Notes under the pieces: model-generated
Seen by the model: the letters and a program-made list of their open reading frames with translations, nothing else
Told to the model about the DNA's origin: nothing
Database searches by the model: none
NCBI GenBank assembly: GCA_017516305.1
Contig: JAFXDB010000162.1
Coordinates: 1-56,118 of the forward strand
Direction of reading: 5' to 3'
Length of the DNA: 56,118 bases
From: Clostridia bacterium
Lineage (GTDB): Bacteria > Bacillota > Clostridia > Christensenellales > Aristaeellaceae
Shown: piece after piece, positions 2,133 to 53,681 of the stretch
Layout: every line of letters begins with the position of its first letter
Numbering within the stretch: position 1 is the stretch's first letter
Position numbers and translations under genes: made by a program

Positions 2133-2726
2133 TCACTCCTGTTCTTTGTGCCATGGATGGCCTTCGGGGTATCTCGCGGTCAATGCAGCCTGAAGCCACG
2201 CCCGCTGGCTGTCGTTCAGCAGAGGATACACAGCTGCGAAATCTGCCTGTGCGGATTCCGTTTGGGGCTGCGCCGCCTTGTACAGCAGCGCAACCTCCGG
2301 CGCCAGAATGGGCAGCCTCGCCTGCGTGCGGCAGACAGGCTGCATGTCCGGGCTGAACAGCAGGTCGATGAAGTTCAGCGCAGACATGCCGGGCGTAAAC
2401 CGGTGGTAGAGCAGCCCCTCCTCCTCGCAGGGGAAGAACTGCACCGGCGCATCGTCACCCCATGTGGCCATGAGATTGCGGCCCTCTTCACTGTCCTCCG
2501 GGGCGAGGATCGGCTTCACCTTCCCCATGCCCCGGTATTCGTGGATGCGCCAGCCTCTGTTCAGCAGATAGCTGATCACCGCCGCACGGGCCATTTCCGG
2601 CAGGCACACATCCAGATCCCCATGGGGCCGGATGGGCTTTCCGGCAAAAAGCTCCAGGGCATATCCACCGCAGACGGCCCACGGGAAGTCCGCTTCTGCC
2701 AACAGGTCACGCAGCTGCGCCAGCAT
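2133..2726 (-). CDS. nucleotidyltransferase-fold protein (ANT(2'')/Lnu-like family)
   Basis: Start moved to MLAQLRDLL (ATG 2724-2726), 2 nt after the upstream stop (TAA 2729-2731). Pol-beta NTase motif CGGYALELFAGKPIRPHGDLDV. Confidence 0.6.
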   Translation of the reverse strand: MLAQLRDLLAEADFPWAVCGGYALELFAGKPIRPHGDLDVCLPEMARAAVISYLLNRGWRIHEYRGMGKVKPILAPEDSEEGRNLMATWGDDAPVQFFPCEEEGLLYHRFTPGMSALNFIDLLFSPDMQPVCRTQARLPILAPEVALLYKAAQPQTESAQADFAAVYPLLNDSQRAWLQAALTARYPEGHPWHKEQE

Positions 2727-2728
2727 GC

Positions 2729-3757
2729 TTACAGCTCCTTGAGCATAGCGATGAACTGATCCACATACGCATCCGGCGTGCACCAGGAGGTGCAGACACG
2801 CAGCACCACATGCTCCTCGTCGAGGCGGCCGTTGAACTCCAGCTTGAAACCCTTCTCCTCAATGGTTTCCCACTGGTCATCGGTGAAGATGGGGAACAGC
2901 TGGTTCGTGGGGGAATCCACGTGGAATGCAATGCCCTTTTCCATCAGCGCCGTGCGGATGCGCATCGCCTGGGCGACCGCCTTTTTGCCCAGCTCGAAGT
3001 ACAGGCCGTCCTTCATCAGGGCGGAGAACTGGATGCCCAGCAGGCGGCCCTTGGCCAGCATGCCGCCCTTCTGCTTCATCATGTAGCGGAAGCGGACGTT
3101 CAGCTCCGGGTTGTTGATGACGATGGCCTCGCCAAAGAGCGCGCCCATCTTCGTGCCGCCCACGGTGAACACATCACAGTACTTGGCAATATCCGCCGGG
3201 GTCAGGTCGCCGGTGGGGGCGGCCAGGCCATAGCCCAGGCGCGCGCCGTCAATGAACAGATACAGGCCCAACTGCCTGCAGGTCAGGTACAGATCCTTCA
3301 GGCGGCTCAGGTCGTACACCGTGCCCACCTCGGTGGACATGGAGATGTACACCATGCCGGGCTTGACAGTGTGCTCGTCATCCGCCTGGGTGGCGGTGGC
3401 CACCACCACCTTGGAGGCGCTGATGCGGCCCTCCTTGTTGGGCAGCGCCAGGCACTTGTGGCCCGTGGACTCGATGGCACCGGTCTCGTGGACGTTGATG
3501 TGGCCGGTGTCGGCGCACAGCACACCCTCGTAGGGCCGCAGGGCCGCGGCGATGACGGTCATGTTGGCCTGGGTGCCGCCGACCATGAAGTGCACGGCGG
3601 AATCCGGGCAGGAGAAGGCCTGGCGGATGGCGTCGGCCGCCTCCCTGCAGTAGTCGTCGGTGCCGTAGCCGGGGGTCTGCACCAGGTTGGTCTCGTTCAG
3701 CTTTTCCAGAATGGAGGGATGGCAGCCCTCCAGATAATCGCAGTTCAGGCGGATCAT
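2729..3757 (-). CDS. ltaE: low-specificity L-threonine aldolase / beta-eliminating lyase family (PLP enzyme)
   Basis: 342 aa. N-terminus MIRLNCDYLEGCHPSILEKL..., GGTQANM and GGTK (PLP-Lys) segments typical of threonine aldolases. Confidence 0.8.
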   Translation of the reverse strand: MIRLNCDYLEGCHPSILEKLNETNLVQTPGYGTDDYCREAADAIRQAFSCPDSAVHFMVGGTQANMTVIAAALRPYEGVLCADTGHINVHETGAIESTGHKCLALPNKEGRISASKVVVATATQADDEHTVKPGMVYISMSTEVGTVYDLSRLKDLYLTCRQLGLYLFIDGARLGYGLAAPTGDLTPADIAKYCDVFTVGGTKMGALFGEAIVINNPELNVRFRYMMKQKGGMLAKGRLLGIQFSALMKDGLYFELGKKAVAQAMRIRTALMEKGIAFHVDSPTNQLFPIFTDDQWETIEEKGFKLEFNGRLDEEHVVLRVCTSWCTPDAYVDQFIAMLKEL

Positions 3758-4018
3758 GTCGTTTCAAATCCTTTCGTCCCGGATGGTGGTATGATGTCGA
3801 ACAGGTTCATTATAACGTTTTCGTAAGGCTGCGTCAACGGTTTGCATGCATCTTTGCTGTACTTCGCCGCGGTCTTCACTGCTCCCCTTCTCCGGCTCGG
3901 CAGCACAGAAAACGGAAATGCATTGTCATTCCCCGCCGGATATGATAAAATACGAGGCAGAGAACGTCGAAGAGCAAAGGAGAACACCATCCTCTTTTCA
4001 TGAAGGGAGACCTGCCAG

Positions 4019-7000
4019 ATGACCAAGCTGGAATCCGCCATCCTCAACTGGGAAAACAGCCTGCTGGACCTGGGCAAGCGCAACCGGATGATCAATTATC
4101 CCATCCGCACCGGCAGCCGCAGCAGCCAGCAGACGCTGCGCCTGGAGGAGCCGGGCTATGCCGAAATCTATGACCTGCTGGTGCGCCAGGGGAAGTCCCT
4201 GACCGTTCAGCAGCCCCCGGTGGAGAAATTCGACCTGCGGTGCGAGGCCGTGATGCGCCTGTTTGAGCGCCTGGGCAGTCCCGTGGTGCCCATGCAGGGC
4301 GTGCTGCGCCCCGCCGGCAGCTTCACCGAGTACCGTAAGGTGCTGAAGAACATGCGCTCCAAGATGAAGCTGGCCCGGGAGGAGCAGGGCATCGGCATCC
4401 TCTACCTGGCGGTGGGCTTCCTGGACTGGAAGCAGCTCACCGGCAGGATGGAGGAGCTGACCTCGCCCCTGCTGCTGGTGCCGGTGCGGCTGAAGATGAA
4501 GAGCATCCGCGCGCCCTATGTGCTGGAGATGCTGGACGAGGACGTGGTGGTGAACCCGGCGCTGAACCAGCTGTTCCAGATGGAATACGGCCTGAGCCTG
4601 CCGGAGCTGACGGACGAAAACGCCCCGGTGGACGAGTTCCTGGCCCGCGTGGAGGAGCTTGCCCGCGGGCATTCCTGGGCCGTTCGCCGCGAATGCCACC
4701 TGGCGCTGATGTCCTTCCAGAAGATCAGCATGTACCATGACCTCAAGCGCAGCCACGACCGCATCGGCCAGAGCGCGGTGCTGCGCGCCATCGCGGGCGA
4801 GGATGCCTACCCCATGGACGCCTCCGTCATGGACGGCGTGTCCCTGGACAAGATCCGCCCCGAGGACAGCCACCTGGTGGTGAACGCCGACAGCAGCCAG
4901 CATTACGCCGTGGAGCTTTCCCGCCGGGGCGTCAGCTTCTGCCTGCAGGGCCCTCCCGGCGGCGGCAAGTCCCAGACCATCACCAACATCATCGCCCAGG
5001 CCCTGGCCGACGGCAAGAAGGTGCTCTTTGTCGCCGAAAAGATGGCCGCCCTGGACGTGGTGCACCGCCGCCTGCAGAAGGCGGGGCTGGGGGAATTCAC
5101 CCTGGCGCTGCATTCCCACCGCGCCAACCGCAAGGCCATCCTGGCCGAGATCGGCCGCCCGCTGCAGCTGGAAAAACAGACGTTGGATCACCATGCCCTG
5201 TCCACCCTGGACGCGCTGGAGGATCTGCGCGCCAGGCTCAACGTGTACCCCGCGCTCCTGCACCGCGTGCGCGAGCCCTTCGGGGACAGCCTGTACACCG
5301 TCCTGGGAGAGCTGGCAGAGCTGCAGGCGCTGCCGCTGGTTCATGCGCCCCTTTCCGGGGTGGAGGACGTCAGCCGCAGCGCCCTGACCGCCGAGCTGAC
5401 CCGCCTGGGCAGCCTGTCCCGCGCCCACGCCCGTTATCTGTCCCTGGAAAGCAACCCGTATGAGGGTCTGCAGGGCAAGTGGACAACCTTCATGGCCCGC
5501 ACCCAGCTTCAAAACGAAACGAAGGCCGTCCTGGAGGACACCCGCAGGCTGCAGCCCGATATCGCCCGCCTCCGGGACGAGGGCCTCCTGCCCGCCTCCG
5601 GCGAGCTGACCGCCCTGGCCGCCCTGACCCGGATCTGCGCCCTTGTGCGCCGCCAGGGCCCCGTCTCCGCCGCCTGGTATGACCATGCAGGCCGTATCGC
5701 CGCCCTGGCCGGGGAGGCACTGGAGGCCGCTGCCGCCGCAGAAAACGCCCGCCAGGAGGCCGCGCAGGTGCTGCTCCCCGGCGTCAAGCTGGATGCAAAC
5801 GCCTTCCTGACCCGCTTCTGCGCCCTGGAAAGCGATCTGCAGGCCGTGCTGACCGGCACTGACTGGCAGCTGCGCACCGACGCTTACGCCACCCATTATG
5901 AGCAGCTGGCAGCCTATATCCCCCGCCTGAACGAGGCCGCCGAGCGCGCCCTGACCCTGCTGGGCTGCACCGGGCGCACCGGTCGCGAGGCGGACTGGGC
6001 CATGGATGTGCTGGCTGCCCTCGTCGCCGCGCCCCATATCGAAACCCTGCCCGATGCAGAAGAAACCCGCGCCCAGCTGGCGCAGATACAGTCCCTGCAG
6101 GAGCAGGCCGCCCGCCTGAACGAGCAGGCCGCCGCCGTCCTGGGCTCCTCCTGGAAGGATTCCGCCCTGGCCGTGGACGCCGCCGCCATGCTGCACCGCA
6201 TGACGCCCGATCCCTCCTTCTTTGCCGGGCTGCGCAACCTCGCCTCCGTCTACAAGGAGCTGCAGACCCTGGCCCCGCATTACAACGGCGTCGGTCACCC
6301 GACGGAAAAGATCGCTCTGCCCTTCCTGAACAGACTGGCCGCCTGGCAGGACGCGTACCACGCCTGGGCCCGTCCGGCTTACAGCCTGGCCCTGGAGCTG
6401 AACCTCCCCTTCCGCGGGCTGGAAACCGACTGGTCGGACGTCCAGCAGCATCTGACCTCCCTTTCCGCCCTGGCAGAGCTGGCCCGCGACCCCGGACACC
6501 GCACGCTCATCCTGAACGCCCTGCAGCGCGCCGATATCCGCCAGCAGGCCGCCGCCATCCCCAATTTCAGCCGTTACGCCGCCTTTGACAACTCCCTGCG
6601 CGGCGCCGCCTTTGCCGGTGACGCCCTGGCGGACGACATCGGCCACACCCTGCGCGCCATCCTCTCCGCCGCCGAGGATCTGGCTGCCCTGCGCGCTGCG
6701 CTGGACGCCCTGCGCCCCGCCTGCGTCCCCGGCGCGACCATGCCCGCGATCCTCTCCGCCCTGCGCGCCGCCGATACCGCCGCCCGCAGCCAGACCCTTG
6801 TGGAGGACGCCCTGCGCCAGCTCAGCGCCCTGCTGCCGGAGGAGAACGTATCCGCCCAGGCGTATTTTGCCGCCATGCAGACCCGCGCCGACGCCCTTTC
6901 AGCGGCTGAGGAAGCCGGGAAGGCCCTGCCCGCCGGGCTCGTGCGCCGCCTGCTGACGGGCTGTCAGCCCCTGCCGCAGCTTCCGGCGCTGCCCGACCTG

Positions 7001-9601
7001 CCCGACGTGGCCGCCCGGCTGACGGCCTTTGCCGCACATTTCACCGCCGACGCCTCCCCCCTGGCCATGCCCTTCGAGGCCATGTGCGCCCGCCTGGAGC
7101 GCTGCCTGGCCGAGCCCGACGCCCTCGACCTGTGGCAGGAATGGCGCGACGCCTCCGCGGAAATGGAGGGAACCCTCTTCTCCGCCTTCGTGCCCGCCGC
7201 CATCGCTGCCGCCGTCCCCGACGAGCAGTGGACGGACGCCGCCCGCCGCCTCTTCCTGTACACCTGGGTGGAGCATGTGCTGGATGCGGAGCCGCTGCTG
7301 TCCGTGTTCCGCGCCCATAACCACCAGGAGAGCATCGCCCGCTTTGACGCCCTGGATCAGCAGCAGCTGGACATTGCCCGCAGCCGCATCCGCAAGCAGC
7401 TCATCGACGTGGTGCCGGACGAGAAGCACCGCGCCCTCTCCGCCACGGACGAGCTGGCCATCCTCCTGTCCGAGATGAACCGCAAGGGCGGCCATATGCC
7501 CCTGCGCAAGCTCTTCAGCAAAATTCCGAACCTGCTGACGACCCTGAAGCCCTGTATGATGATGTCCCCGCTGTCCGTAGCCTCCTACCTGGAGGACAAC
7601 GCCCTGACCTTCGACCTGGTCATCTTTGACGAGGCCTCCCAGATCATGCCGGAGAACGCCATCGGCGCCATCATGCGCGGCAGGCAGGTCATCGTCACCG
7701 GAGACACCAAACAGATGCCGCCCACGGACTTCTTTACCGTTTCCGTCGGCGCAAGCGACTATGACACGGATGACGAGGACGAGGCCGAGCAGGAGAGAAT
7801 CCCCGAGGAGTCCATTCTGGAGCAGTGCGCCGCCGTCCTGCCGTCCTGCCCGCTGCTGTGGCACTACCGCAGCCGCCACGAGAGTCTCATCGCCTTCTCC
7901 AACCGGGAGATCTACGCCGGCCGCCTGGTCACCTTCCCCGGCGCAGTGGATAAGCAGCCCCACCTGGGCGTGGAGCTGGAGTACGTCCCCGACGGCGTTT
8001 TCCACAAGCGCCGCAACAAGCAGGAGGCCAGGCGCTGCATCCAGCTCATTGAAGATCACATCCTGAACCGCTCCCACCGGAGCCTGGGCGTGGTAGCCTT
8101 CAGCCGCACCCAGCAGGCCGCCATCGAGGAGGAGCTGCACCGCTTCCGTATCGCTCACCCGGAATACGACGAGTTCTTCGACGAGCACAGGGAGGAGCCG
8201 TTCTTCATCAAGAATCTGGAAAACGTGCAGGGCGACGAGCGCGACACGATGATCTTCTCCGTCGGCTACGCCAAACGCGAGGGCGGCAAGCCCATGCTGC
8301 TGAACCTGGGCCCGCTGAGCGCCTCCGGCGGCGAGCGTCGCCTGAATGTCGCCATCACCCGCGCCCGCTACAACGTCAAGCTCGTTTCCTCCGTCCTTGC
8401 CGGGGATATCGACCTGTCCCGCACCGCCTCGGAGGGCACCCGCCTGCTGCGCGCCTACATCGACTATGCCGGGAAGGGCTTTGCCGCCATCGAGGCGGAC
8501 GGCGCTGTCACCGCCTCCGCCCGCTCCGACGCCTTTGCCCTCCACCTGGCGCAGGTGCTGGAGGCCGCAGGCTACCGGGTGGAGCGCGCCGTGGGCTGCT
8601 CGGACTGCCGCATCGACGTGGCCGTCTGCCATCCGACGCAGGAGGGCCGCTATGTCCTGGGCGTGATGACCGACGGCGCGGCCTACGCAGCCCAGCAGAC
8701 CTGCCGCGACCGCGACAGCCTGCAGGCCTCCGTCCTGCGCGGCATGGGCTGGCGGCTGCACCGGGTCTGGTCAGCCGACTGGCTCCAGCGCCCCGACGGT
8801 GTGGAGCGCGAGCTCCTGGCCGCCGCTGCCGACGCCATCTCCAACCCCGATCCTGTCCCTGAGCAGGACGCCCAGCCTCAGCGCGTCTGGAGCCGTCCGG
8901 CAGACACGGCGGACGCGCCGCCCGCCGTGGCCTTCCCGGATTATCAGCCCGCCCTGCTGCCCGAGGGCGAAACCCTGCCCATCAACGAGCTGGTGCTGCG
9001 CGTGGTGGAGACCGAGCAGCCCGTCCACCGGGACGAGCTGTGCCGCCGCCTGGCCCCCGCCCTGGGCCATGACCGGGTCGATCCCGGCCTTCGCCGCGAG
9101 GTGGAGGTCTCCGTGGCGCGCCTGAAGCTGGACGACCTGCGGGAGGAGGACGGCTTCCTCACCCGCGAGGGTTTCCGCCTGACCCAGCCCCGCCGCGCCG
9201 GTCACCGCAGCATCGACATGATCGCCCCCGAGGAGCTGCGCCTGGCCATATTCCTGGTGGTGAAGCACTCCTTAGGCGCAACCCGCGAGGGCGTCATCAC
9301 CCGCGTGGCGGAGCTTCTGGGCTACGAGCGCCGCGGCCCCCGCATCCAGAAAGCGCTGGAAAACGCCTTCGACTTCCTGGTCGCCGTGGGTACCATCCGC
9401 ATGACAGCGGACGGCAAGGCCGAGGTGCTGCCGGAGGAGACCCCCGCCCGCCTGATCGCCCCGGAGAGCGGCGCTGCGCTGGCGCTTCCCGCGCCGGAGC
9501 CGCCCGCCGACCCGGATGACGCGCCTGCGCTGTCCGCCCCCGAGGGCGTCATCGCCCTTCCCGCCCCTGAGCATCCCCAGGAGGTGAATGACCATGACTG
9601 A
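4019..9601 (+). CDS. DUF4011 / SF1B (Upf1-DNA2-like) helicase / restriction-endonuclease-fold / DUF3320 protein, 1860 aa
   Basis: GKRNRMINYP signature at the N-terminus. Walker A GPPGGGKS (nt 4949-4972). VIFDEASQI (~7618-7644), VTGDTKQMPPT, WHYRSRHESLIAFSN, VQGDERD, RRLNVAITRAR. Nuclease-fold CRIDVAV...MTDGAAY...GWRLHRVWSADW (~8600-8790). Confidence 0.9.
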   Translation: MTKLESAILNWENSLLDLGKRNRMINYPIRTGSRSSQQTLRLEEPGYAEIYDLLVRQGKSLTVQQPPVEKFDLRCEAVMRLFERLGSPVVPMQGVLRPAGSFTEYRKVLKNMRSKMKLAREEQGIGILYLAVGFLDWKQLTGRMEELTSPLLLVPVRLKMKSIRAPYVLEMLDEDVVVNPALNQLFQMEYGLSLPELTDENAPVDEFLARVEELARGHSWAVRRECHLALMSFQKISMYHDLKRSHDRIGQSAVLRAIAGEDAYPMDASVMDGVSLDKIRPEDSHLVVNADSSQHYAVELSRRGVSFCLQGPPGGGKSQTITNIIAQALADGKKVLFVAEKMAALDVVHRRLQKAGLGEFTLALHSHRANRKAILAEIGRPLQLEKQTLDHHALSTLDALEDLRARLNVYPALLHRVREPFGDSLYTVLGELAELQALPLVHAPLSGVEDVSRSALTAELTRLGSLSRAHARYLSLESNPYEGLQGKWTTFMARTQLQNETKAVLEDTRRLQPDIARLRDEGLLPASGELTALAALTRICALVRRQGPVSAAWYDHAGRIAALAGEALEAAAAAENARQEAAQVLLPGVKLDANAFLTRFCALESDLQAVLTGTDWQLRTDAYATHYEQLAAYIPRLNEAAERALTLLGCTGRTGREADWAMDVLAALVAAPHIETLPDAEETRAQLAQIQSLQEQAARLNEQAAAVLGSSWKDSALAVDAAAMLHRMTPDPSFFAGLRNLASVYKELQTLAPHYNGVGHPTEKIALPFLNRLAAWQDAYHAWARPAYSLALELNLPFRGLETDWSDVQQHLTSLSALAELARDPGHRTLILNALQRADIRQQAAAIPNFSRYAAFDNSLRGAAFAGDALADDIGHTLRAILSAAEDLAALRAALDALRPACVPGATMPAILSALRAADTAARSQTLVEDALRQLSALLPEENVSAQAYFAAMQTRADALSAAEEAGKALPAGLVRRLLTGCQPLPQLPALPDLPDVAARLTAFAAHFTADASPLAMPFEAMCARLERCLAEPDALDLWQEWRDASAEMEGTLFSAFVPAAIAAAVPDEQWTDAARRLFLYTWVEHVLDAEPLLSVFRAHNHQESIARFDALDQQQLDIARSRIRKQLIDVVPDEKHRALSATDELAILLSEMNRKGGHMPLRKLFSKIPNLLTTLKPCMMMSPLSVASYLEDNALTFDLVIFDEASQIMPENAIGAIMRGRQVIVTGDTKQMPPTDFFTVSVGASDYDTDDEDEAEQERIPEESILEQCAAVLPSCPLLWHYRSRHESLIAFSNREIYAGRLVTFPGAVDKQPHLGVELEYVPDGVFHKRRNKQEARRCIQLIEDHILNRSHRSLGVVAFSRTQQAAIEEELHRFRIAHPEYDEFFDEHREEPFFIKNLENVQGDERDTMIFSVGYAKREGGKPMLLNLGPLSASGGERRLNVAITRARYNVKLVSSVLAGDIDLSRTASEGTRLLRAYIDYAGKGFAAIEADGAVTASARSDAFALHLAQVLEAAGYRVERAVGCSDCRIDVAVCHPTQEGRYVLGVMTDGAAYAAQQTCRDRDSLQASVLRGMGWRLHRVWSADWLQRPDGVERELLAAAADAISNPDPVPEQDAQPQRVWSRPADTADAPPAVAFPDYQPALLPEGETLPINELVLRVVETEQPVHRDELCRRLAPALGHDRVDPGLRREVEVSVARLKLDDLREEDGFLTREGFRLTQPRRAGHRSIDMIAPEELRLAIFLVVKHSLGATREGVITRVAELLGYERRGPRIQKALENAFDFLVAVGTIRMTADGKAEVLPEETPARLIAPESGAALALPAPEPPADPDDAPALSAPEGVIALPAPEHPQEVNDHD

Positions 9602-10610
9602 CCGGCTGCCCATCCCCACGCTCCCCGAGCTGCCCATCCTGCCCGACTGTGACGCAGCACCCGCGGAGGTCACCCCCATCGCCATCCCGGCGGAGATCAT
9701 CCTGCCGCCCCTGCCCGGCGAAGCCGCAGCGGATGCCGCCATCATCCCCGCAGAGGCCGTGCCCGCTGAAATCATCCTGCCAGAGGCGCCGGAAAGCGCC
9801 ATCATCCCGGCGGAAGCCGCAGCCCCTGCAGAAAGCGGCGGCCTCGTCCCGCTGACTGACCTCCCGCTCACCCAATCCAATTCCGAATTCCGAATTCCGA
9901 ATTCCGCATTCCCCCACTGCACCAGCCGCCTGGAGCTGGCCAACACCATGGCCGACGCCTGGGACAAGGCCCGGCAAGCGCTGATCACGGGCGAGCTGGC
10001 CGCAGCGCTGGACGCCTGCGACCTGGAAGCCGCCGCCATCTGCCGCGACCAGACGGCAAACATCGCCTCCGGGCGCTGCACGCCGGACAGGGCCGTGCTG
10101 GAGGCCATCCGCCGCCTGAGCGAAATGCCCCTGGCGGTCTGGTGCGGCCGCCGCTACGCCGGTGCGTCCGACCTGGGCGGGAGCCTGCTGCAGGCCCTGC
10201 GCGGCACGGGCGTCATCCCCGCCCACCTGGACAGCCTGCTGCTGAGCGGCGCCGCCTCCGTCCTCTGCGAGCCCGCCCAGCGCGAAGCCCTCTCCGCCAT
10301 CGAAACCCGCTACGCCGCCCCGGACTGCGCCCCGCGCGAGCGCATGCTGCTGATGTACATGGCGGGCTACCTCCTGTGCGGCGTGGCCGCCTTCATCACC
10401 GGCGGCGAGACCTTCTACACCGTGGAGGAGCTGGCGGCGTGGCTGGCAGCCCGCTGCAGGCGCTCCACCGCCGCCTTCACCCAGGCCTGCCACCGCCTGC
10501 TGGACGAGAATCACCTGCTCGACCCCCAGCTGGAGGCGTGGCTGTGCGCCATCGGCCGCCGTCAGGAGGTTGCCCGCTGGCAGGCCGAGATCGACGCCGG
10601 GATGCTGTAA
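9588..10610 (+). CDS. hypothetical protein: Pro/Ala/Glu-repeat N-terminus plus Cys-rich C-terminal domain
   Basis: AGGAGG 9579-9584. ATG 9588 or, better spaced, ATG 9594. It overlaps the helicase stop (TGA 9599-9601). High GC3 throughout. No family recognised. Confidence 0.65.
   Translation: MTMTDRLPIPTLPELPILPDCDAAPAEVTPIAIPAEIILPPLPGEAAADAAIIPAEAVPAEIILPEAPESAIIPAEAAAPAESGGLVPLTDLPLTQSNSEFRIPNSAFPHCTSRLELANTMADAWDKARQALITGELAAALDACDLEAAAICRDQTANIASGRCTPDRAVLEAIRRLSEMPLAVWCGRRYAGASDLGGSLLQALRGTGVIPAHLDSLLLSGAASVLCEPAQREALSAIETRYAAPDCAPRERMLLMYMAGYLLCGVAAFITGGETFYTVEELAAWLAARCRRSTAAFTQACHRLLDENHLLDPQLEAWLCAIGRRQEVARWQAEIDAGML
9874..9913 (+). repeat. heptanucleotide tandem repeat (AATTCCG)x4 plus degenerate flanking units, inside a CDS
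   Basis: Perfect units at 9879-9885, 9886-9892, 9893-9899 and 9900-9906. Flanked by AATCC (9874-9878) and CATTCCC (9907-9913). Translated as SNSEFRIPNSAFP. Confidence 0.9.
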
Positions 10611-10677
10611 CGAGGCAGGATTTCCACCCCGAAGCAGCGAATGTACATTGTTGACGATTTCCGACAGAACGGAGCGA

Positions 10678-24272: not shown

Positions 24273-24307
24273 GAATTCCGAATTCCACATTCCGAATACC
24301 GCATTTT
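24273..24307 (+). repeat. heptamer array GAATTCC GAATTCC ACATTCC GAATACC GCATTTT in a 5' leader
   Basis: Five 7-nt units between the predicted -10 box and the SD (GGAGGA 24311-24316) of the gene starting at 24321. Confidence 0.8.
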
Positions 24308-24320
24308 TCCGGAGGAAGCC

Positions 24321-25409
24321 ATGCAGACCATTACGAAGATCGTCATCACCGGCGGCCCCTGCGCGGGCAAGTCCACGGCCATGAGCTGGATCCAGAAGCA
24401 CTTCTCCCAGCAGGGCTGGACGGTGCTGTTCGTCCCCGAAACGGCCACCGAGTTCATTTCCGGCGGCGTCGCCCCCTGGACCTGCGGCACCAACGCCCAG
24501 TACCAGGTCGTCCAGATGACCCTGCAAAGGGAGAAGGAGCGCCTTTTTGAGCAGGCCGCCCGCACCATGCCCAAGGAGAAGATCCTCATCGTCTGCGACC
24601 GCGGTATGCTGGACAACCGCGCCTACATGAACGAGGAGGAGACCGAGTGGGTCCTGGAGCAGATCGGCGCCAACGAGGTGGAGCTGCGCGACGGATACGA
24701 CGCCGTGTTCCACCTGGTCACTGCCGCCAAGGGCGCCGAGCAGTTCTACACCACCGCCAACAACTCCGCCCGCATCGAGACCGTGGAGCAGGCCGTCGCC
24801 CTGGATGACAAGATCATCGCCGCCTGGACGGGCCACCCCCATTTCCGCGTCATCAACAACGAGACGGACTTTGAGGAAAAGATGCGCCGCCTGATGCGGG
24901 AGATCGCCTCCTTCCTGGGCGGCCCCGAGCCGCTGGAGATCGAGCGCAAGTTCCTCATCGAATACCCCGATATCGCATGGCTGGAGAGCCTGCCCAACTG
25001 CAGCCGCATTGACGTCATCCAGACCTACCTCACCGCCGCGGAGGGCGAGGAGCGCCGCGTCCGCCAGCGCGGCTGCGACGGCCACTACCTCTTCACCATG
25101 ACCACCAAGCGCGCCGTCACCGGCATGAAGCGAATCGAAGTGGAAAAGCGCCTGACCAAGGATGAGTACCTTGCCGCGCTGATGGAGGCGGACGTCACCC
25201 GCCGCCAGATCCGCAAGACCCGCTACTGCCTCACCTGGGGCATCCAGTATTTCGAGATCGACGTCTACCCCTTCTGGGATGACAAGGCCATCATCGAAAT
25301 TGAGCTCTCCGACGAGAACGAGCCCATCGACTTCCCGCCCCAGCTGCATGTCATCCGCGAGGTCACCGACGACCCCGCATACAAGAACGCCGAGCTGGCC
25401 GCCATCTGA
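24321..25409 (+). CDS. P-loop ATPase (AAA_28/NadR-kinase-like) fused to a CYTH (triphosphate tunnel metalloenzyme) domain
   Basis: Walker A ITGGPCAGKST. C-terminal half begins EIERKFLI (CYTH ExExK signature), followed by ...RVRQRG...KRIEVEKRL...YFEIDVY...IIEIEL. Confidence 0.75.
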   Translation: MQTITKIVITGGPCAGKSTAMSWIQKHFSQQGWTVLFVPETATEFISGGVAPWTCGTNAQYQVVQMTLQREKERLFEQAARTMPKEKILIVCDRGMLDNRAYMNEEETEWVLEQIGANEVELRDGYDAVFHLVTAAKGAEQFYTTANNSARIETVEQAVALDDKIIAAWTGHPHFRVINNETDFEEKMRRLMREIASFLGGPEPLEIERKFLIEYPDIAWLESLPNCSRIDVIQTYLTAAEGEERRVRQRGCDGHYLFTMTTKRAVTGMKRIEVEKRLTKDEYLAALMEADVTRRQIRKTRYCLTWGIQYFEIDVYPFWDDKAIIEIELSDENEPIDFPPQLHVIREVTDDPAYKNAELAAI

Positions 25410-38375: not shown

Positions 38376-38732
38376 ATGGAAAATGTATATAAAGCCCTCA
38401 CGGCCCTGCGGGCGCCGCTGCAGCAGGAGGAATACGACCTGCACCACCTGGTGATGGCCGCCCTGGACGCAGCCGGGATTCCCTGGGCCCACGAGGTTCC
38501 CCTGGCCCCCCGCTGCCGCATTGATCTGCTGTGCGGCGGCGTGGGGATCGAAATCAAGCGCGGCGCGGTGGAGAAGGCCCGGATCCTCCGTCAGCTGACC
38601 CGCTACGCCGCCTGCCCGCAGATCACCGCCCTCATCCTGGTGACGGAGAAGACCGTCCCCCTGCCCCACACGCTCTGCGGCAAGCCCGTGCGCCTGCTCT
38701 GCCTCAACAGGCTGTGGGGCATTGCCCTGTGA
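38376..38732 (+). CDS. small PD-(D/E)xK nuclease-fold-like protein (hypothetical)
   Basis: 118 aa. CRIDLLCGGVGIEIKRG resembles a D...ExK nuclease core. Sits directly upstream of comEC. Confidence 0.45.
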   Translation: MENVYKALTALRAPLQQEEYDLHHLVMAALDAAGIPWAHEVPLAPRCRIDLLCGGVGIEIKRGAVEKARILRQLTRYAACPQITALILVTEKTVPLPHTLCGKPVRLLCLNRLWGIAL

Positions 38733-38760
38733 ACCACCAGCAATGAACAGGAGGATGTGC

Positions 38761-41046
38761 ATGCCCGACGCCAAACGCACCTCCGCCATCCTCCTGCCGC
38801 TGATGACCCTGGGCGTGATGCTGGGCATCCTCCTGGCCCGGGAGGCAGACATGACGCTGCTGCCCCTGGCCCTTGCCGCGCTGCTGTGCAGCCTGGCGTC
38901 GGCGCTGCTGCCCGGGCGCGGGCGGATCGCCGCCCTGACGGTGCTGTGCTGCGCCCTGGGCGTCCTGACCACCCTGTACGCGGGCCATCCCGACCTGCCG
39001 CCGGAGGGGGAATACATCGTCTCCGGCATCGTGACGGAAGCGCCGCTGGCCGATGAAAACGCCGCAAGCCTCCGCACCTGCCTGGATGACGTGACCCTGA
39101 ACGGCAGACCGCTGCAGGGCGACGCGCTGTGGACGTCCTACCTGGACGCAGGCGAAACGCTGCCCGACTGGCTCATCCCCGGCGAGCGGGTCTGCTTCAC
39201 CGCCCGGGTCTACCATTTCACCGGCGAGTGCAACCCCGGCGGCTATGACAGCCGGGAATCCTGGCTGGCCAGCGGCGTCATCCTGGGCATCTACGGCCAC
39301 GACCATCTGCAACGGGATCACGAGCCTGCCGGGCTGCGTGGCCTGGCGCCCCGGCTGCGCCATGTGATCACCACCGGCCTGATGCAGGTCATGGACGATG
39401 AGGCCGGAGCCTTTGCCGCCGCCACCCTTCTGGGCGAGAAGACCTACCTCTGGGAGGAGGATTATGTCGCCTTCCGTCGGCTGGGGCTGCTGCATATCAT
39501 GAGCGTATCCGGCTACCATGTGGGGATCCTGGCGGTGGTGCTGCTGAAGCTGCTGCGCCGTCTGGAGCTGCCCCGCGGGCTGTCCGCGGCCCTGCTGGGG
39601 CTCCTTCTGACCCTGTACGCGCTGCTGGCAGGCACGGCCACGCCGGTCATCCGGGCCGGACTCCTGCTGATGCTGCACGAGGCAGGGCACCTCCGCCACC
39701 GGCAGACGGTCTCGGCGCACCTCCTCTGCCTCACCGCCATGCTGCAGCTGCTCGCTAATCCCTATCAGCTCTTCAGCGCCTCCTTTCAGCTGACCTACGG
39801 CGCGATGCTGGGGCTGCTGCTGGTGTATCCTCGTCTGGCAAAGGCGTATTACAGCCTGAAGCCCTGGAAAAACACATTCTGGCGCGGCTTCTCCGCCTCC
39901 CTGGCGGTGCAGCTGGGGCTGCTTCCGGCCCAGATGCACTTTTTCGGCTGCGTAACGCCCTCCTCGCTCCTGACCAATCTGTTCATCATCCCGGTCATGA
40001 CGCTCCTGATGGGTTCCTACTGGGTGATGCTGCTCCTGCTGCCCGTCCCGGCGGTGCGGGAGGCTCTGGGTTTCGTCCTTGGCCGCACCACGGAGGGGCT
40101 GCTGAGCATCATCCGCCTGCTGTCGGAGGCGCTGGGCGGGTACCTGCGCACCCCGGCAGGCAATGCGCTGACCCTGGCGGGGTGGGTACTGCTGATGGCA
40201 GGGCTGAGCGTGCTGCTGCGCCCGGAGCGTCGGCGTCTGCGCTGTCTCCTGTCCACCGTCGGCGCGGCGCTGATGGTACTGAGCCTTCTCCGGCTGCCCC
40301 ACACGTCCACCTGCTACATCCAGTTCAGCGACGGCGAGGCCGACGGAGCCATCCTGCGCGACCGGGGCGCCGTCATCCTCATCGACACGGGAGAATATGC
40401 CCACACCGTCGCCGGTTATCTCCGTCAGGAGGCCCTGTCGGTGGACATGCTGATCCTGACGCATCTGCACATTGACCATGCCGGAGGCATCCGGGGGCTG
40501 CTGGATGCCGGGATTCCCGTGGAGGTCTGCGCCCTGCCGGAGGGGGCTTATTCCGCCGCAGACGCAGACCCGGAGGCCATCGTCCTGCTGGAGGAGCTGT
40601 CCTCGACGGGCACGCGCTTCATCACCCTTTCCCGAGGCGACGTGATCCATACCCCCACGGGACAGCTGACGGTGCTGTGGCCCCAGGCGGGCACGGTTCG
40701 TCCCGGCGAGGACGCCAACGGGCATTCCCTGGCGCTGCGGGCCGATATCCAGGGCACCACCCTGCTGCTGACCGCCGACGTCACCAGCGCGTATGAGATG
40801 TATGCCGCCATCCCGGCGGATGTGCTCAAGGCCGCCCATCACGGCAGCACGGAGAGCACCTCTCCGGAGTTTCTGGACGCCGTCAGTCCGCAGGTCATCC
40901 TTCTCTCCTGCGGCGAGGAAAGCCGGGAGAAAAGCCTTGCCACCCGCGCCGGAGACATTCCCGTTTACAGCACCCACAGCAGCGGCGCCATCACCCTGCG
41001 CTTCACGCAGGACGCCTTCATCGTGGAAACCTACCTGCCGAGGTAA
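38761..41046 (+). CDS. comEC: DNA internalization competence protein ComEC/Rec2 with C-terminal metallo-beta-lactamase domain
   Basis: AGGAGGA 38749-38755 then ATG 38761. Polytopic membrane core with HIMSVSGYHVGIL. MBL motif LTHLHIDHAGG. Confidence 0.9.
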   Translation: MPDAKRTSAILLPLMTLGVMLGILLAREADMTLLPLALAALLCSLASALLPGRGRIAALTVLCCALGVLTTLYAGHPDLPPEGEYIVSGIVTEAPLADENAASLRTCLDDVTLNGRPLQGDALWTSYLDAGETLPDWLIPGERVCFTARVYHFTGECNPGGYDSRESWLASGVILGIYGHDHLQRDHEPAGLRGLAPRLRHVITTGLMQVMDDEAGAFAAATLLGEKTYLWEEDYVAFRRLGLLHIMSVSGYHVGILAVVLLKLLRRLELPRGLSAALLGLLLTLYALLAGTATPVIRAGLLLMLHEAGHLRHRQTVSAHLLCLTAMLQLLANPYQLFSASFQLTYGAMLGLLLVYPRLAKAYYSLKPWKNTFWRGFSASLAVQLGLLPAQMHFFGCVTPSSLLTNLFIIPVMTLLMGSYWVMLLLLPVPAVREALGFVLGRTTEGLLSIIRLLSEALGGYLRTPAGNALTLAGWVLLMAGLSVLLRPERRRLRCLLSTVGAALMVLSLLRLPHTSTCYIQFSDGEADGAILRDRGAVILIDTGEYAHTVAGYLRQEALSVDMLILTHLHIDHAGGIRGLLDAGIPVEVCALPEGAYSAADADPEAIVLLEELSSTGTRFITLSRGDVIHTPTGQLTVLWPQAGTVRPGEDANGHSLALRADIQGTTLLLTADVTSAYEMYAAIPADVLKAAHHGSTESTSPEFLDAVSPQVILLSCGEESREKSLATRAGDIPVYSTHSSGAITLRFTQDAFIVETYLPR

Positions 41047-41051
41047 CACAA

Positions 41052-42836
41052 ATGGATTACGAAATGGACTACCTGGACGAGCTGCTCTTTGAGCAGCCCG
41101 ACGACAGCGGGGAGGAGCTGCTCCCGGCCTACCTGCGGGATGTACCCTCCGGCGTCCGCCGCAGCTACGGCACCCTGAGCTACAACCGCCGCAGCAAATG
41201 CTGGACGGTGAAGGGCGACCCGTCGGTGACGGAGATGTGCAAGCGTCTCTTCCCCGGCAGCGCGGGCAGCAGGCGGGGCGAGGCACGCTTTACCGCCCAC
41301 CGGCGCGTGGTGGGGGATCTGCTGTGGCTGATGCTGCGCTTCCCGCTGGAAATCGCCCCCCGTGACCGCGCCCTGTGGGACAAGGCTGTGCAGGACTGCC
41401 GCGACCACGCCGTCCGCAGGGAGCTGGCTGCGCGCCTGCCCCAGCGCATGACGCCGCCGGAGGGCACCTTCGAGGGCGAGCTGCGCCCCTTCCAGCAGGA
41501 GGGTCTTGCCTTCCTCCTGCAGCACGAGCGCTGCCTGCTGGCGGATGAAATGGGCCTGGGCAAAACAGTGCAGGCGCTGGCCTGGCTGGCCTCGACGGGC
41601 TCCTTCCCCGCCATCGTCATCCCCCCGGCCCACCTGACCCGCAACTGGACGGAGGAGGCCGCGCGCTTCCTGCGCCTGGACGGAAAAACGCCCCGCATCC
41701 ATGTGATCAAGGGCCTCAAGCCCTACGACCTGCCCGAGGCGGATATCTACATCATGCATTACCTCCTGCTGCGCGGCTGGAAGGAAGTGCTGCCGCAGCT
41801 GGGCTTCCAGGCTGTTGTATTCGACGAAGTGCAGGAGCTGCGCCATTCGGGCACAGAGAAGTATTCCGCCGCCTCCCTCCTGGCAGAAAGCTGCGAGAGG
41901 GTCGTGGGCCTCTCCGGCACACCGATTTATAACACCGGGGGCGAGATCTGGAACGTCATCAACATCCTGGACTTCCATTTCCTCGGCGACTGGGAGAGCT
42001 TCTCCCGCGAGTGGTGCTACGGCTACGGCAACGGCGTGGTGGTCAAGCCCGCGCTTCTGGGCGATTATCTGCGCCGGGAAGGCCTGATGCTGCGCCGCAC
42101 CAAGCAGGAGGTATTGAAAGAGCTGCCGCCCAAGCGCCGCGCCGTGCAGGAGCTGGACTGGAACGACAAGCTCTACGCCCAGCTGATGGCGCCCATCCTG
42201 CCGGAGGTGGTCCGCTGGAAAACCGACGGCACGCTGACCGCCTCCGCCCGCGCGATGCTGGAGGAATCCATCTCCCAGCACGTCCGCCAGGCCACCGGCA
42301 TTGCGAAGGCCCCCTATGTGTGCCAGTTCGTGCGCGCGCTGCTGGATTCGGGTGAGAAGGTGCTGCTCTTTGCCCACCACCACGCGGTGATGGACGTGTA
42401 CCGGCAGGAGCTGAAGCACTACCGCCCCGGCTTCATCACCGGCCGGGAGACCATTTCCGCCAAGTCGGAGGCAGTGGAGCGCTTCATGGCCGGCAAAACG
42501 GACGTGCTGTGCATCTCCCTGCGCGCCGCCAGCGGCCTCAACCTGCAGCGGGCCACCTGCGTCATCTTCGGCGAGCTGGACTGGTCGCCCGCCGTTCACA
42601 GCCAGGCCGAGGACCGCGCCCACCGCATGGGCCAGGAAGATTCCCTCCTGTGTTACTACCTGGTATCCCCCCAGGGCAGCGACGCGGCCATGCAGGAGGC
42701 CCTGGGCCTGAAGGTCAGCCAGTTCGTGGGGCTGATGGGCGACACGCCCGTTTCCCAGGCCGAGACCGCCGAGGCCGCACACCAGGCCCGCAAGCATGTG
42801 GAGATGATCGCGGCACAAATAGAAGCGATGGGGTAA
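41052..42836 (+). CDS. SNF2-family (SF2) helicase/translocase
   Basis: LRPFQQEGLAFLL, LADEMGLGKTVQALA, VVFDEVQELRH, LSGTPIYN, C-terminal helicase motifs (GLNLQ..., DWSPAVHSQAEDRAHRMGQ). Confidence 0.85.
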   Translation: MDYEMDYLDELLFEQPDDSGEELLPAYLRDVPSGVRRSYGTLSYNRRSKCWTVKGDPSVTEMCKRLFPGSAGSRRGEARFTAHRRVVGDLLWLMLRFPLEIAPRDRALWDKAVQDCRDHAVRRELAARLPQRMTPPEGTFEGELRPFQQEGLAFLLQHERCLLADEMGLGKTVQALAWLASTGSFPAIVIPPAHLTRNWTEEAARFLRLDGKTPRIHVIKGLKPYDLPEADIYIMHYLLLRGWKEVLPQLGFQAVVFDEVQELRHSGTEKYSAASLLAESCERVVGLSGTPIYNTGGEIWNVINILDFHFLGDWESFSREWCYGYGNGVVVKPALLGDYLRREGLMLRRTKQEVLKELPPKRRAVQELDWNDKLYAQLMAPILPEVVRWKTDGTLTASARAMLEESISQHVRQATGIAKAPYVCQFVRALLDSGEKVLLFAHHHAVMDVYRQELKHYRPGFITGRETISAKSEAVERFMAGKTDVLCISLRAASGLNLQRATCVIFGELDWSPAVHSQAEDRAHRMGQEDSLLCYYLVSPQGSDAAMQEALGLKVSQFVGLMGDTPVSQAETAEAAHQARKHVEMIAAQIEAMG

Positions 42837-52422: not shown

Positions 52423-53628
52423 TCAGCGGGTCGTGTCAATGTAATCCTTATTCCAGATGACCGCCGTCTTCATGGGGGCGGCCTTGCAGTAGATTTTGTC
52501 GGCATAGGCGCCCATGGGATCGGCGGTGAACTCCTCCCGGTCGATCAGGCCCACGATCTCGTCATACCGGCTGACGGCCAGCATCTCAATGGCCTTCTCC
52601 ATGTGATCCTGACGGAAATTGATGGAGCCGAAGATCAGGTGGTTCTCAAAGCCGAAGGGCATGGTGTCGAAGGTGACCTTCGGGCCCAGGGAGAAGGAAT
52701 TGTATACGCCGTTGCAGCCCAGGGCCTTGTGCTCAAAGGCGATGGTATGCTCCACATTCGCGCCGCTGACGCCGATGAAGGTGGTGGCGCGGCCGCCCAG
52801 GGCCTCCACAATGGCCCTGGCGCAGTCGGCGGGGTCGGCGAAGCTGTTCACCAGATAGTCCGCCCTGGCCTGCTCCTTGGCAAAGACGACCTTGGGGCTG
52901 TCCTCCGGGCTGCGGCCGACAAAGAGGATCTTCGCCTCCGGGTGGGCCTGACGGATGATATCGCCGATGAACATGCCCGTGGTGCCCAGGCCGAAGATCA
53001 CTGTGCGCTGGAAGATCTCGTCCGCGGCGATGCGGCGGGCCTCCTCCAGGCTGCACTTGTGGCGGCGGGCCGTCTGGCGGAACCAGTGGGCACTGCCTAG
53101 ATCCTCCATACGCTCCAGCTGGAAGAGCATGCACGCGAAGGGGTCGGGGAACACCATCTTCTTGGCGAAGGACAGGGCCAGCTTGCCGTCCTTCACGTAG
53201 CCGTCCGGGATCCGCAGGAGCATGTCGGGGTTGACGTACATGGCGTCGGAGAACAGGCCGTCAGCCTGATCGCAGCCGTACTCGAAGTAGGTCTCGTCCT
53301 CGGTGTAGCGGGTGGGGTCAATGGAGTCTCCGCCGCGGATGAGCACGATGGCAAAGCGGTTCTGGGAAGGCACCCAGACAACGCCCTCGTGGCCGTTGAT
53401 CAGGCGGTTCGTCCCCGCGGGGAACTTGGGGCCCAGCAGGCCCTTTGCGCCCATGTGCATCAGTTCGTTGTCCGTGCCGCAGAAGCCGCACATCACCGGC
53501 TGCACCAGCACGCCCTCCTTGACGGGCTCGCCGCGCAGGCGCTGCCGGGGCGGGTTGATCAGCTCCACCTCGCCGTAGACCAGGGGGCGCTGGGGGTCAT
53601 TCTGGAAATATGTCGCGTTGACCTTCAT
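52423..53628 (-). CDS. medium-chain (zinc-type) dehydrogenase/reductase, glucose-dehydrogenase-like
   Basis: Start at MKVNATY (ATG 53626-53628, AAGGAG 9 nt upstream). CGFCGTDNELMH zinc-site region. GLGTTGMFIG Rossmann motif. Confidence 0.7.
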   Translation of the reverse strand: MKVNATYFQNDPQRPLVYGEVELINPPRQRLRGEPVKEGVLVQPVMCGFCGTDNELMHMGAKGLLGPKFPAGTNRLINGHEGVVWVPSQNRFAIVLIRGGDSIDPTRYTEDETYFEYGCDQADGLFSDAMYVNPDMLLRIPDGYVKDGKLALSFAKKMVFPDPFACMLFQLERMEDLGSAHWFRQTARRHKCSLEEARRIAADEIFQRTVIFGLGTTGMFIGDIIRQAHPEAKILFVGRSPEDSPKVVFAKEQARADYLVNSFADPADCARAIVEALGGRATTFIGVSGANVEHTIAFEHKALGCNGVYNSFSLGPKVTFDTMPFGFENHLIFGSINFRQDHMEKAIEMLAVSRYDEIVGLIDREEFTADPMGAYADKIYCKAAPMKTAVIWNKDYIDTTR

Positions 53629-53681
53629 GGTTTCGCTCTCCTTCATCGTCCGCCGGGCGGACAGGCTGCATTCTTGCTTAG

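Follow-up and report, generated by a model that had tools for sequence, protein, structure and literature searches.

What does the giant helicase-like gene at positions 4019-9601 (forward strand) of contig JAFXDB010000162.1 do, and does it work alone? The contig belongs to the assembly GCA_017516305.1 of a Clostridia bacterium of the family Aristaeellaceae, and the stretch analyzed here, positions 1 to 56,118, is referred to as the window. The original prediction, made from the bare sequence, saw in this gene a candidate for the core of a single-gene, Hhe-like nucleic-acid surveillance system. We consider instead that two genes here form an operon under a promoter of their own, and that this operon descends by reduction from a larger helicase-nuclease system of the Hhe / PDC-S37 / ProA kind; in it a partner protein would dock on the helicase and the complex would survey foreign nucleic acids; to this reading, proposed mechanism included, we assign a probability of roughly 0.55. 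Three things go beyond the original prediction: the partner related to the tail of a kinase, the probable descent of the module from a conserved operon of several genes, and the loss of a nuclease glutamate (Glu), which is shared by the whole clade and maintained under selection.

The giant protein and its helicase motor

The gene is a single open frame of 1860 codons encoding 1860 amino acids (aa), and its designation as a helicase-nuclease gene is based on the translation, on matches in Pfam, PADLOC and NCBIfam, and on more than 7379 homologous clusters. Because the GC content at its third codon positions (GC3, 0.89) matches that of the neighboring genes (0.83-0.92), we regard the frame as a genuine host-adapted gene and not as a chance open reading frame (ORF) in GC-rich DNA. 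The motifs on which the original prediction was built are all present, at the positions it gave: LNWENSLLDLGKRNRMINYP at the N-terminus, the Walker A motif GPPGGGKSQT at residues 311-320 (nt 4949-4978), VIFDEASQI at residues 1201-1209 (nt 7619-7645), and further downstream VTGDTKQMPPT (residue 1226), WHYRSRHESLIAFSN (1281), VAFSRTQQ (1359), VQGDERD (1403) and RRLNVAITRAR (1440), followed by the nuclease block of residues 1530-1588, i.e., CRIDVAV (1530, nt 8606), MTDG (1550-1553), RDRD and GWRLHRVWSADW, which ends at 1588.

The domain order proposed at the time (DUF4011, superfamily 1 (SF1) helicase, nuclease fold, DUF3320) is backed by Pfam domain by domain, every match lying above its gathering score. 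DUF4011 (PF13195, E 5.1e-29) covers residues 15-184 (nt 4061-4570, dN/dS, the ratio of nonsynonymous to synonymous substitution rates, 0.13), and a profile search with this N-terminal domain gave no sequence relative in the PDB. AAA_11 matches residues 291-382 plus a second stretch; the first part of RecA1, with Walker A and motif Ia, thus marked by AAA_11, lies at nt 4874-5218, while the second part of RecA1 (Walker B DEASQ, nt 7628-7642, and motif III) and RecA2 (motifs V and VI) occupy nt 7499-8458, where AAA_12 matches residues 1282-1457, the motifs are invariant and dN/dS is 0.09. The restriction endonuclease (REase) domain MTES_1575 (PF18741, E 9.4e-25) spans residues 1506-1601, and DUF3320 (PF11784, E 3e-9) residues 1655-1687. 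The wider DUF3320 region (nt 8969-9418) we read as winged-helix domains, in line with the report that the winged helix-turn-helix (wHTH) domains of MTES_1575 proteins, which have a Vsr-family REase fold, overlap DUF3320 (PMC3710099). A Pro/Ala/Glu-rich, low-complexity tail (nt 9419-9598), recognized in the translation, closes the protein and shows an identity of 0.55 within the clade to which the window protein belongs.

Overall dN/dS is 0.2, and it lies at 0.09-0.14 in each of DUF4011, helicase core, REase and wHTH region. Walker A and the other helicase motif residues are invariant among 67 aligned homologues, and, judged by these residues, the helicase ATPase is a catalytically complete member of SF1B. 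An AlphaFold2 model of residues 285-1480, computed from the same number of aligned sequences (mean pLDDT, the per-residue confidence score, 78.8; pTM, the predicted template-modeling score, 0.41), places Senataxin/Sen1, IGHMBP2, Dna2, Aquarius and Upf1 at the top of the Foldseek matches to the helicase core, at probability 1.0, which upholds the earlier assignment to Upf1/DNA2-like SF1B helicases. The likeness to these enzymes extends over the RecA1/RecA2 core with motifs I, Ia, II, III, V and VI. Our search turned up no solved structure of any superfamily member; the nearest PDB sequences found by phmmer are IGHMBP2 and Sen1.

The overlapping partner gene

Directly after the helicase, in the window as in all other loci that carry the module, lies a second gene (nt 9594-10610, forward strand). 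Its longest ORF starts at 9588, and the likely start is the ATG at 9594, which is preceded 9 nt upstream by GGAGG (9580-9584) and gives the beginning MTDLP seen in the homologues. Its first 8 nt are shared with the end of the helicase gene (stop codon 9599-9601), and from this arrangement partner and helicase are read as co-transcribed and translationally coupled. A conserved, overlapping partner belongs to the module, and the locus is therefore probably not a single-gene system.

The partner itself has no match in Pfam, PADLOC or NCBIfam. It consists of a conserved start (MTDLP..LP) and a disordered Pro/Ala/Glu-rich repeat linker of variable length (nt 9594-9905; delimited by alignment, pLDDT <50, dN/dS 0.48), followed by a folded C-terminal domain of about 230 residues (residues 107-340, nt 9906-10607; pLDDT ~90, dN/dS 0.23), for which Foldseek returned no match with E <0.8 in the PDB or BFVD. 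It was BLASTP and profile searches that gave the domain relatives. By BLASTP it is homologous to the non-kinase C-terminal part of all seven Ser/Thr kinases that adjoin the helicases of the nearest relatives (24-29% identity, E 1e-21 to 5e-25). A profile search over 1.84 billion representatives recovered 166 proteins with the partner domain, many of them ~545-580 aa long with the domain at the C-terminus, and seven of ten sampled hits match Pkinase at the N-terminus (six above the gathering score, one weakly; one also has HIRAN). These homologies suggest that the partner is most likely the remnant of a Ser/Thr kinase, whose kinase domain has gone and whose C-terminal domain sits on a disordered linker.

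A comparable layout was seen on a low-GC (41%) metagenomic contig (L032, 1-2116), where a kinase-less, partner-like protein of 315 aa begins two bases past a DUF3320-bearing gene whose C-terminus matches the wHTH region of the helicase; the reduced two-gene arrangement is therefore not unique to the window clade. Another stand-alone partner-like protein (P0170) is a contig-end fragment and uninformative, and the contig of the nearest outgroup helicase (P0015) is too short to show a downstream gene.

The N-termini of these proteins are repetitive. The kinases of the larger operons described below (L021-L028) start with repeated 'ATVINP'-like motifs, and the kinase-less partners with 'MTDLP..LP' and then repeated 'IIPAE/LIPxD'-like motifs; such repeats could be docking or phospho-acceptor motifs for the FHA protein. 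The partner ORF also contains a heptamer microsatellite, (AATTCCG) x 4.9, at nt 9879-9912 (tandem repeat finder, chance expectation 0.00). As the unit is not a multiple of three, a change in copy number would frameshift the partner, and the repeat could in principle switch the gene by phase variation; in the close relatives that were examined, the partner reading frame is kept. Copies of (AATTCCG)n were also observed at L003 9829-9856 (just upstream of the helicase), at L015 13769-13796 and at 24274-24287 of the window.

A larger operon in the nearest relatives

The kinases come from the nearest relatives outside the clade, of which seven were sampled (L021-L026, helicase from 6001 or 7001, and L028, NZ_CP069422.1 15062-32924) and whose helicases share 34-40% identity with that of the window over ~97% of the length. 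All seven show the same gene order, i.e., the DUF4011 helicase-nuclease, a Ser/Thr kinase of ~560 aa, one or two unknown proteins (~200-240 aa and ~430 aa), an FHA protein and an NrdG-like 4Fe-4S/radical-SAM protein. Five of the seven continue with a ClpB-D2-like AAA+ gene and two have a PP2C phosphatase; upstream of the helicase there is often a small HTH_26 regulator. L028 is a 44-kb extrachromosomal record of the cultured Aristaeella lactis WTE2008; its operon additionally has DUF6273 and a second kinase, and the record also carries an integrase and a WYL regulator. More generally, the neighbors of the relatives include a PemK toxin, a caspase-like peptidase, TnpV, integrase, WYL and SIR2 genes.

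None of the FHA, NrdG-like radical-SAM, ClpB-like AAA+ or PP2C genes occurs in the 56-kb window, and no Ser/Thr kinase stands directly downstream of its helicase: the partner there lacks a Pkinase match and represents the kinase C-terminal domain alone. The accessory genes of the operon correspond to no named system in PADLOC v2 or NCBIfam r20, showing generic domain-level similarity alone, and our literature search found no paper that describes a kinase/FHA/radical-SAM operon of this kind. In Clostridia, then, a gene that is listed as a single-gene candidate is usually part of a kinase/FHA/radical-SAM/AAA+ operon, possibly an unrecognized immune system of the signaling type. The relatives in Proteobacteria and Bacteroidota (Ralstonia, Hymenobacter) look solo.

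One may speculate further, tentatively and at odds that we would place clearly below even, that the PDC-S37-type helicase of Clostridia is the core of a multi-gene system, absent from PADLOC v2, NCBIfam r20 and the literature searched, that couples nucleic-acid sensing to phospho-signaling, with the kinase C-terminal domain as a helicase-docking adaptor and the window clade as a natural minimal, non-nucleolytic, helicase-only version. If so, the window clade would work with the adaptor alone, without a kinase or a canonical nuclease active site.

Two side observations concern the Hymenobacter plasmid NZ_CP049908.1 (L031): a large SIR2-family gene adjoins its helicase in a defense-like neighborhood, and both this plasmid and the A. 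lactis record (L028) have a DUF4236 protein and an ion-transporter gene near the DUF4011/DUF3320 helicase.

The altered nuclease site

The nuclease domain (nt 8534-8821) has the Vsr/DUF559-like MTES_1575 fold, and the family consensus derived from a 120-sequence alignment reads YKIDIAV...GIECDG..Y..AKTARDRDHLR...GW.LYRVWSTEW. The window protein keeps D1533 and D1552 and has methionine (M1550, nt 8666-8668) in place of the glutamate. The original prediction had suspected the loss of a catalytic Glu at this point, correctly so, and it is a fixed trait of the clade: position 1550 is M or L in 14 of 14 clade members and E in 105 of the 106 other sequences. Further changes fixed in the clade are Y1530C, C1551T and E1587D (14/14), with R1569Q in 13 of 14, and D1533, D1552 and the RDRD motif are retained throughout, except for R1563H in two members. 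Aligned with the DUF559 structure 3HRL, the domain profile matches its D...ExDG...W core (E 0.004), such that position 1550 falls on the Glu of the VEADG strand and the Asp of VDF is met by D1533; to E. coli Vsr (1VSR) the family nuclease profile aligns weakly. The Vsr/DUF559-like fold is therefore present in the window protein, but the complete D...ExD active-site strand that would be expected of Hhe is not, the clade having M/L for the Glu of the ExDG seen in 3HRL.

Since a conserved metal-binding Glu has given way to Met/Leu across the clade, the cleavage chemistry is probably altered or lost, and the nuclease fold may serve mainly a DNA-recognition or structural role. Relaxed selection on the domain was considered and rejected: its identity within the clade (0.75) equals that of control pairs with the same degree of divergence (0.75), and dN/dS against the closest relative is 0.11.

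Placement among known defense families

A homologue search over 5.8 billion protein clusters (E <= 1e-10) gave at least 7379 relatives of the giant protein, and those listed share its Pfam architecture with a typical length of ~1845 aa. The superfamily is accordingly very large: the scored candidates by themselves amount to >7000 clusters at 90% identity. In PADLOC the best model is PDC-S37 (1235.7 bits, E = 0, in three stretches, the best of which aligns to model positions 754-1540 of 1550 and so reaches the model end), and Hhe follows with 567 bits (E 1.9e-170). The Hhe identity put forward originally thus stands as kinship and fails as a statement about the closest model, as PDC-S37 (1236 bits) and ProA of NCBIfam (1182 bits) outscore Hhe (567 bits in PADLOC, 777 in NCBIfam). 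On these scores the protein belongs to the Hhe / PDC-S37 / ProA superfamily and, by NCBI thresholds, is an equivalog of neither ProA nor Hhe.

Gao and colleagues reportedly introduced Hhe in 2020 as a single-gene defense system of helicase plus Vsr endonuclease. With Hhe (NF042953, PADLOC PDLC02194) the window protein shares DUF4011, the split AAA_11/AAA_12 SF1B motor, a comparably long inter-motif region, the MTES_1575/Vsr-like fold and DUF3320; it differs in the replaced nuclease Glu, in an obligate-looking partner gene and in nearest relatives that are members of a multi-gene operon, not solo genes. Later work also treats Hhe as one gene with helicase and nuclease domains that acts as a defense system, its apparent triggers including a cluster of phage DNA-metabolism genes; of the candidate triggers, one gene proved toxic upon expression solely when Hhe is present (10.1101/2024.10.10.617714). 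The operon-type relatives score higher against PDC-S37 than the window protein itself (1405 and 1308 bits); the model, however, is ~300 positions shorter than the window protein, and the window gene has a partner, with relatives sitting in operons of 7-9 genes. No Pro-named NCBIfam model matched the partner or the operon genes. Our literature search found no paper that defines ProA and none on the mechanism of any member of the Hhe / PDC-S37 / ProA family. A functional analogy may be drawn with Hachiman HamAB, which likewise couples a DNA-surveying helicase to a nuclease-fold effector and is regulated by a second subunit (PMC12278908), but it belongs to another helicase superfamily and another nuclease family without homology to the proteins discussed here, and the analogy is functional alone.

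The helical insertion

Walker A and Walker B are 893 residues apart in the window protein. The original prediction had put an ATPase split of ~880 residues in the foreground, while naming a length normal for the family as evidence to the contrary, and it is the latter that was found: among the 120 best homologues the distance from Walker A to DE(A/S)(S/T)Q is 843-1460 residues, with a median of 909. Moreover, the alignment of a relative to the Hhe profile of NCBIfam is contiguous (residues 103-1645 against model positions 128-1706), and Hhe itself must therefore have an equally long inter-motif region. A split ATPase is normal in this family, and flagging it as unusual in annotation is unwarranted.

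The intervening ~760 residues between motif Ia and Walker B (nt 5219-7498) are predicted by AlphaFold2 as an all-alpha insertion of ~30 helices (pLDDT 85-95). An accessory module within RecA1, between motif Ia and motif II, is a feature shared with Upf1 and Sen1, and we take its position to be that of their accessory domain 1C, the 'prong'. It differs from that of Upf1-like helicases in size, ~760 helical residues against tens, and the window protein has the extra DUF4011, nuclease-fold and wHTH domains. Foldseek matches of the insertion to SMC, MukB and dynein were rejected as homologies, being of low probability and low TM-score and reflecting long helices. Within the insertion an NP(W/Y)xG motif and a D..L.R....Y block are conserved anchors. 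For the insertion as a whole, identity between clade members is 0.46-0.55 and drops to 0.14-0.18 in comparison with the outgroup, while the helicase/RecA core stands at 0.85-0.88; dN/dS is 0.30 in the insertion vs ~0.10 in the core. The insertion is the most variable and fastest-evolving part of the giant protein, and possibly the one that determines specificity.

Insertion site, promoter and evolution of the module

Promoter and both genes together form an accessory module of 6.8 kb (nt 3843-10613) that is present or absent as a unit at a fixed site. A scan with the SDH_alpha-like neighbor over one genome per species brought up 13 related species-level genomes, all of them Christensenellales/Aristaeellaceae-type metagenome-assembled genomes from the gut. 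Eight species (L007-L010, L012-L015) have an empty site with a lyase-SDH_alpha spacer of 164-359 nt, and filled sites were found in the window, L001/L002, L003 (same place as L006), L004 and L016 by tblastn and in L027 by gene calls. The left junction is a conserved GCGTCAA(C/T)GG that lies within the promoter from which the divergent lyase gene is read; the right junction is GGCAGGATTT, upstream of the SDH_alpha-like gene; resolved to a few bases, the module replaces ~22 nt between these sequences, and no target-site duplication was seen at its junctions. In a neighbor-joining tree of lyase and SDH_alpha the filled species are monophyletic with all empty species outside, a pattern that fits a single gain followed by vertical inheritance. 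The small extra genes that we observed between lyase and helicase in L003 (8984-9631) and L016 (~2675-3507) indicate that the site behaves as a small variable hotspot.

Among the species that retain the module, lyase and SDH_alpha taken together have diverged by 7-12% at the protein level. Identity to the window proteins is 66-74% for the helicase (87% in L027, the closest relative), 55-65% for the partner (L027 78%) and 82-95% for the flanks, i.e., at the protein level the module evolves about two to three times faster than its surroundings, and the insertion and the partner change most rapidly. The module is neither strictly core nor a classical island, but an accessory insertion that is small, old and quick to evolve. 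A strictly core, syntenic gene, which the original prediction had mentioned as an outcome that would speak against it, is thus not what the eight species without the module show.

The module has a promoter of sigma-70 type at nt 3923-3951, TTGTCA-17-TGATAAAAT, with a TG-extended TAAAAT (10 of 12 matches in the promoter scan plus the TG extension), and when the six filled loci are aligned its -35 and extended -10 elements show no variation. A scan of the whole window gave no Rfam match.

Window annotation bears out the housekeeping character claimed for the neighborhood: nearby are the end of gltX, an ECF riboflavin S-component, the beta-eliminating lyase, the SDH_alpha-like gene, DUF975, DAHP and DHQ synthases, GH43 and AraC, and farther away SpoIID, Spo0A, BipA, RF3, SMC, PBP1 and ComEC. 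The claim of a host-like GC content survives for codon usage, as GC3 (0.89) equals that of the neighbors, but not for bulk GC, which is 0.688 in the module vs 0.634 in the rest of the window. This excess lies in codon positions 1 and 2 and is explained by a protein composition rich in Ala, Leu, Arg and Pro; a recently acquired horizontal GC island was rejected on the same grounds.

A proposed mechanism and its rivals

We postulate that the module entered its one intergenic site once, in the ancestor of an Aristaeellaceae gut subgroup, and that it would have been inherited vertically under purifying selection ever since. In the complex that we envisage, the partner domain would dock on the helicase as a non-catalytic regulatory subunit, and the complex could load on single-stranded or damaged/replicating foreign nucleic acid via its DUF4011 and wHTH parts and translocate 5'->3' with ATP, as Upf1-like enzymes do; the replication of the invader would be obstructed in this way with little or no cleavage by the complex itself, and the helical insertion may provide a sensing or regulatory surface. 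By analogy with Hhe, the validated relative, the role is likely to be surveillance of phages or mobile DNA. The lineage then represents a natural dissection that keeps the motor, a nuclease fold minus its Glu and the kinase C-terminal domain, all under purifying selection, and that marks the retained orphan domain as a likely helicase-binding module. As to the undescribed surveillance system that the original prediction had hoped for, the giant protein is a normal-sized member of a huge family already known to defense-annotation tools, and it is the kinase-tail partner and the operon that are newly seen.

The simplest rival is a plain Hhe-type enzyme, a single protein whose helicase senses phage DNA metabolism and whose own Vsr-like nuclease cuts, the partner being irrelevant and the Glu loss compensated. 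Such an enzyme would share the domain order of Hhe and explain the strong PADLOC match to it, and D1533, D1552 and the RDRD motif are indeed kept in a nuclease domain under strong purifying selection (dN/dS 0.11); relatives that look solo are known from Ralstonia and Hymenobacter. We nevertheless deem it unlikely, given that the protein scores 777 against an Hhe equivalog cut-off of 2000 and higher with PDC-S37 and ProA, that the partner is conserved, overlapping and under selection in every filled locus, and that the residue aligned with the Glu of the DUF559 active-site strand is hydrophobic in all 14 clade members. Somewhat less doubtful, though still well short of an even chance, is a domesticated chromosomal helicase that has left immunity for the maintenance of host DNA or RNA (repair, R-loop or replication-conflict resolution). 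Its fixed syntenic position in all members of the subclade with vertical inheritance, the host GC3 and the lack of mobility or defense neighbors would be expected of it, as would the loss of the effector Glu and of all signaling genes; the Upf1-like relatives Sen1, IGHMBP2 and Dna2 are housekeeping enzymes, and a large DUF4011 gene of P. aeruginosa is a core gene flanking a defense hotspot (PMC10250203). A housekeeping role, however, sits uneasily with eight related species that lack the module and keep the flanking genes, with a protein evolution about two to three times faster than that of the flanks, and with nearest relatives on mobile or defense-type backgrounds. That the locus is a decaying, functionless remnant of the larger operon seems to us very improbable. 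At least five genes of that operon are missing, it is true, and with them the kinase domain and the nuclease Glu. Yet the 1860-codon frame is intact with all ATPase motifs invariant, the overall dN/dS of 0.2 falls to ~0.1 in the catalytic domains, six loci preserve both the promoter and the coupling of the two genes, and the module has been retained across species with 7-12% flank divergence.

Several points weigh against the reduced, partner-regulated surveillance operon that we favor. Its status as a reduced descendant (helicase plus kinase C-terminal domain) follows from parsimony, and the direction, kinase lost and not gained, does not come from a rooted tree. The loss of the kinase, FHA, radical-SAM and AAA+ genes together with the nuclease Glu could mean that the ancestral activity has gone as well, and the presence of the module in every sampled species of its subclade fits a domesticated function too. 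The best NCBIfam match, 'anti-phage protein ProA' (NF058533, 1181.7 bits), stays below the equivalog cut-off of 1500, as do the operon-type relatives (1323 and 1187 bits), and the Hhe model (NF042953, 777.1 bits) is below its cut-off of 2000. PDC-S37 is, as we understand its PADLOC name, a candidate only and catalogued as a single-gene one, and no paper mentioning it was found in the literature search. In E. coli Vsr the matching strand is FTHG, with a Thr near the Glu position, and it is a backbone carbonyl that binds the metal; the loss of a side chain is therefore no proof of a dead nuclease. Finally, the window annotation has no integrase, transposase or other defense gene near the module, and there is no transfer RNA gene in the 56-kb window.

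Other genes in the window

Three further genes of the window were noted in passing. At 24321-25409 (forward strand) lies a gene for a fusion protein of AAA_28 (a NadR-like P-loop domain) and CYTH, and at 52423-53646 (reverse strand) an ORF of 407 aa whose GC3 is host-like and for which Pfam gave no match. The third, coding for a SNF2-family helicase of 594 aa (41052-42836, forward strand), begins 6 nt after the end of a ComEC-like gene (38722-41046), and such close spacing suggests that the two may be co-transcribed.

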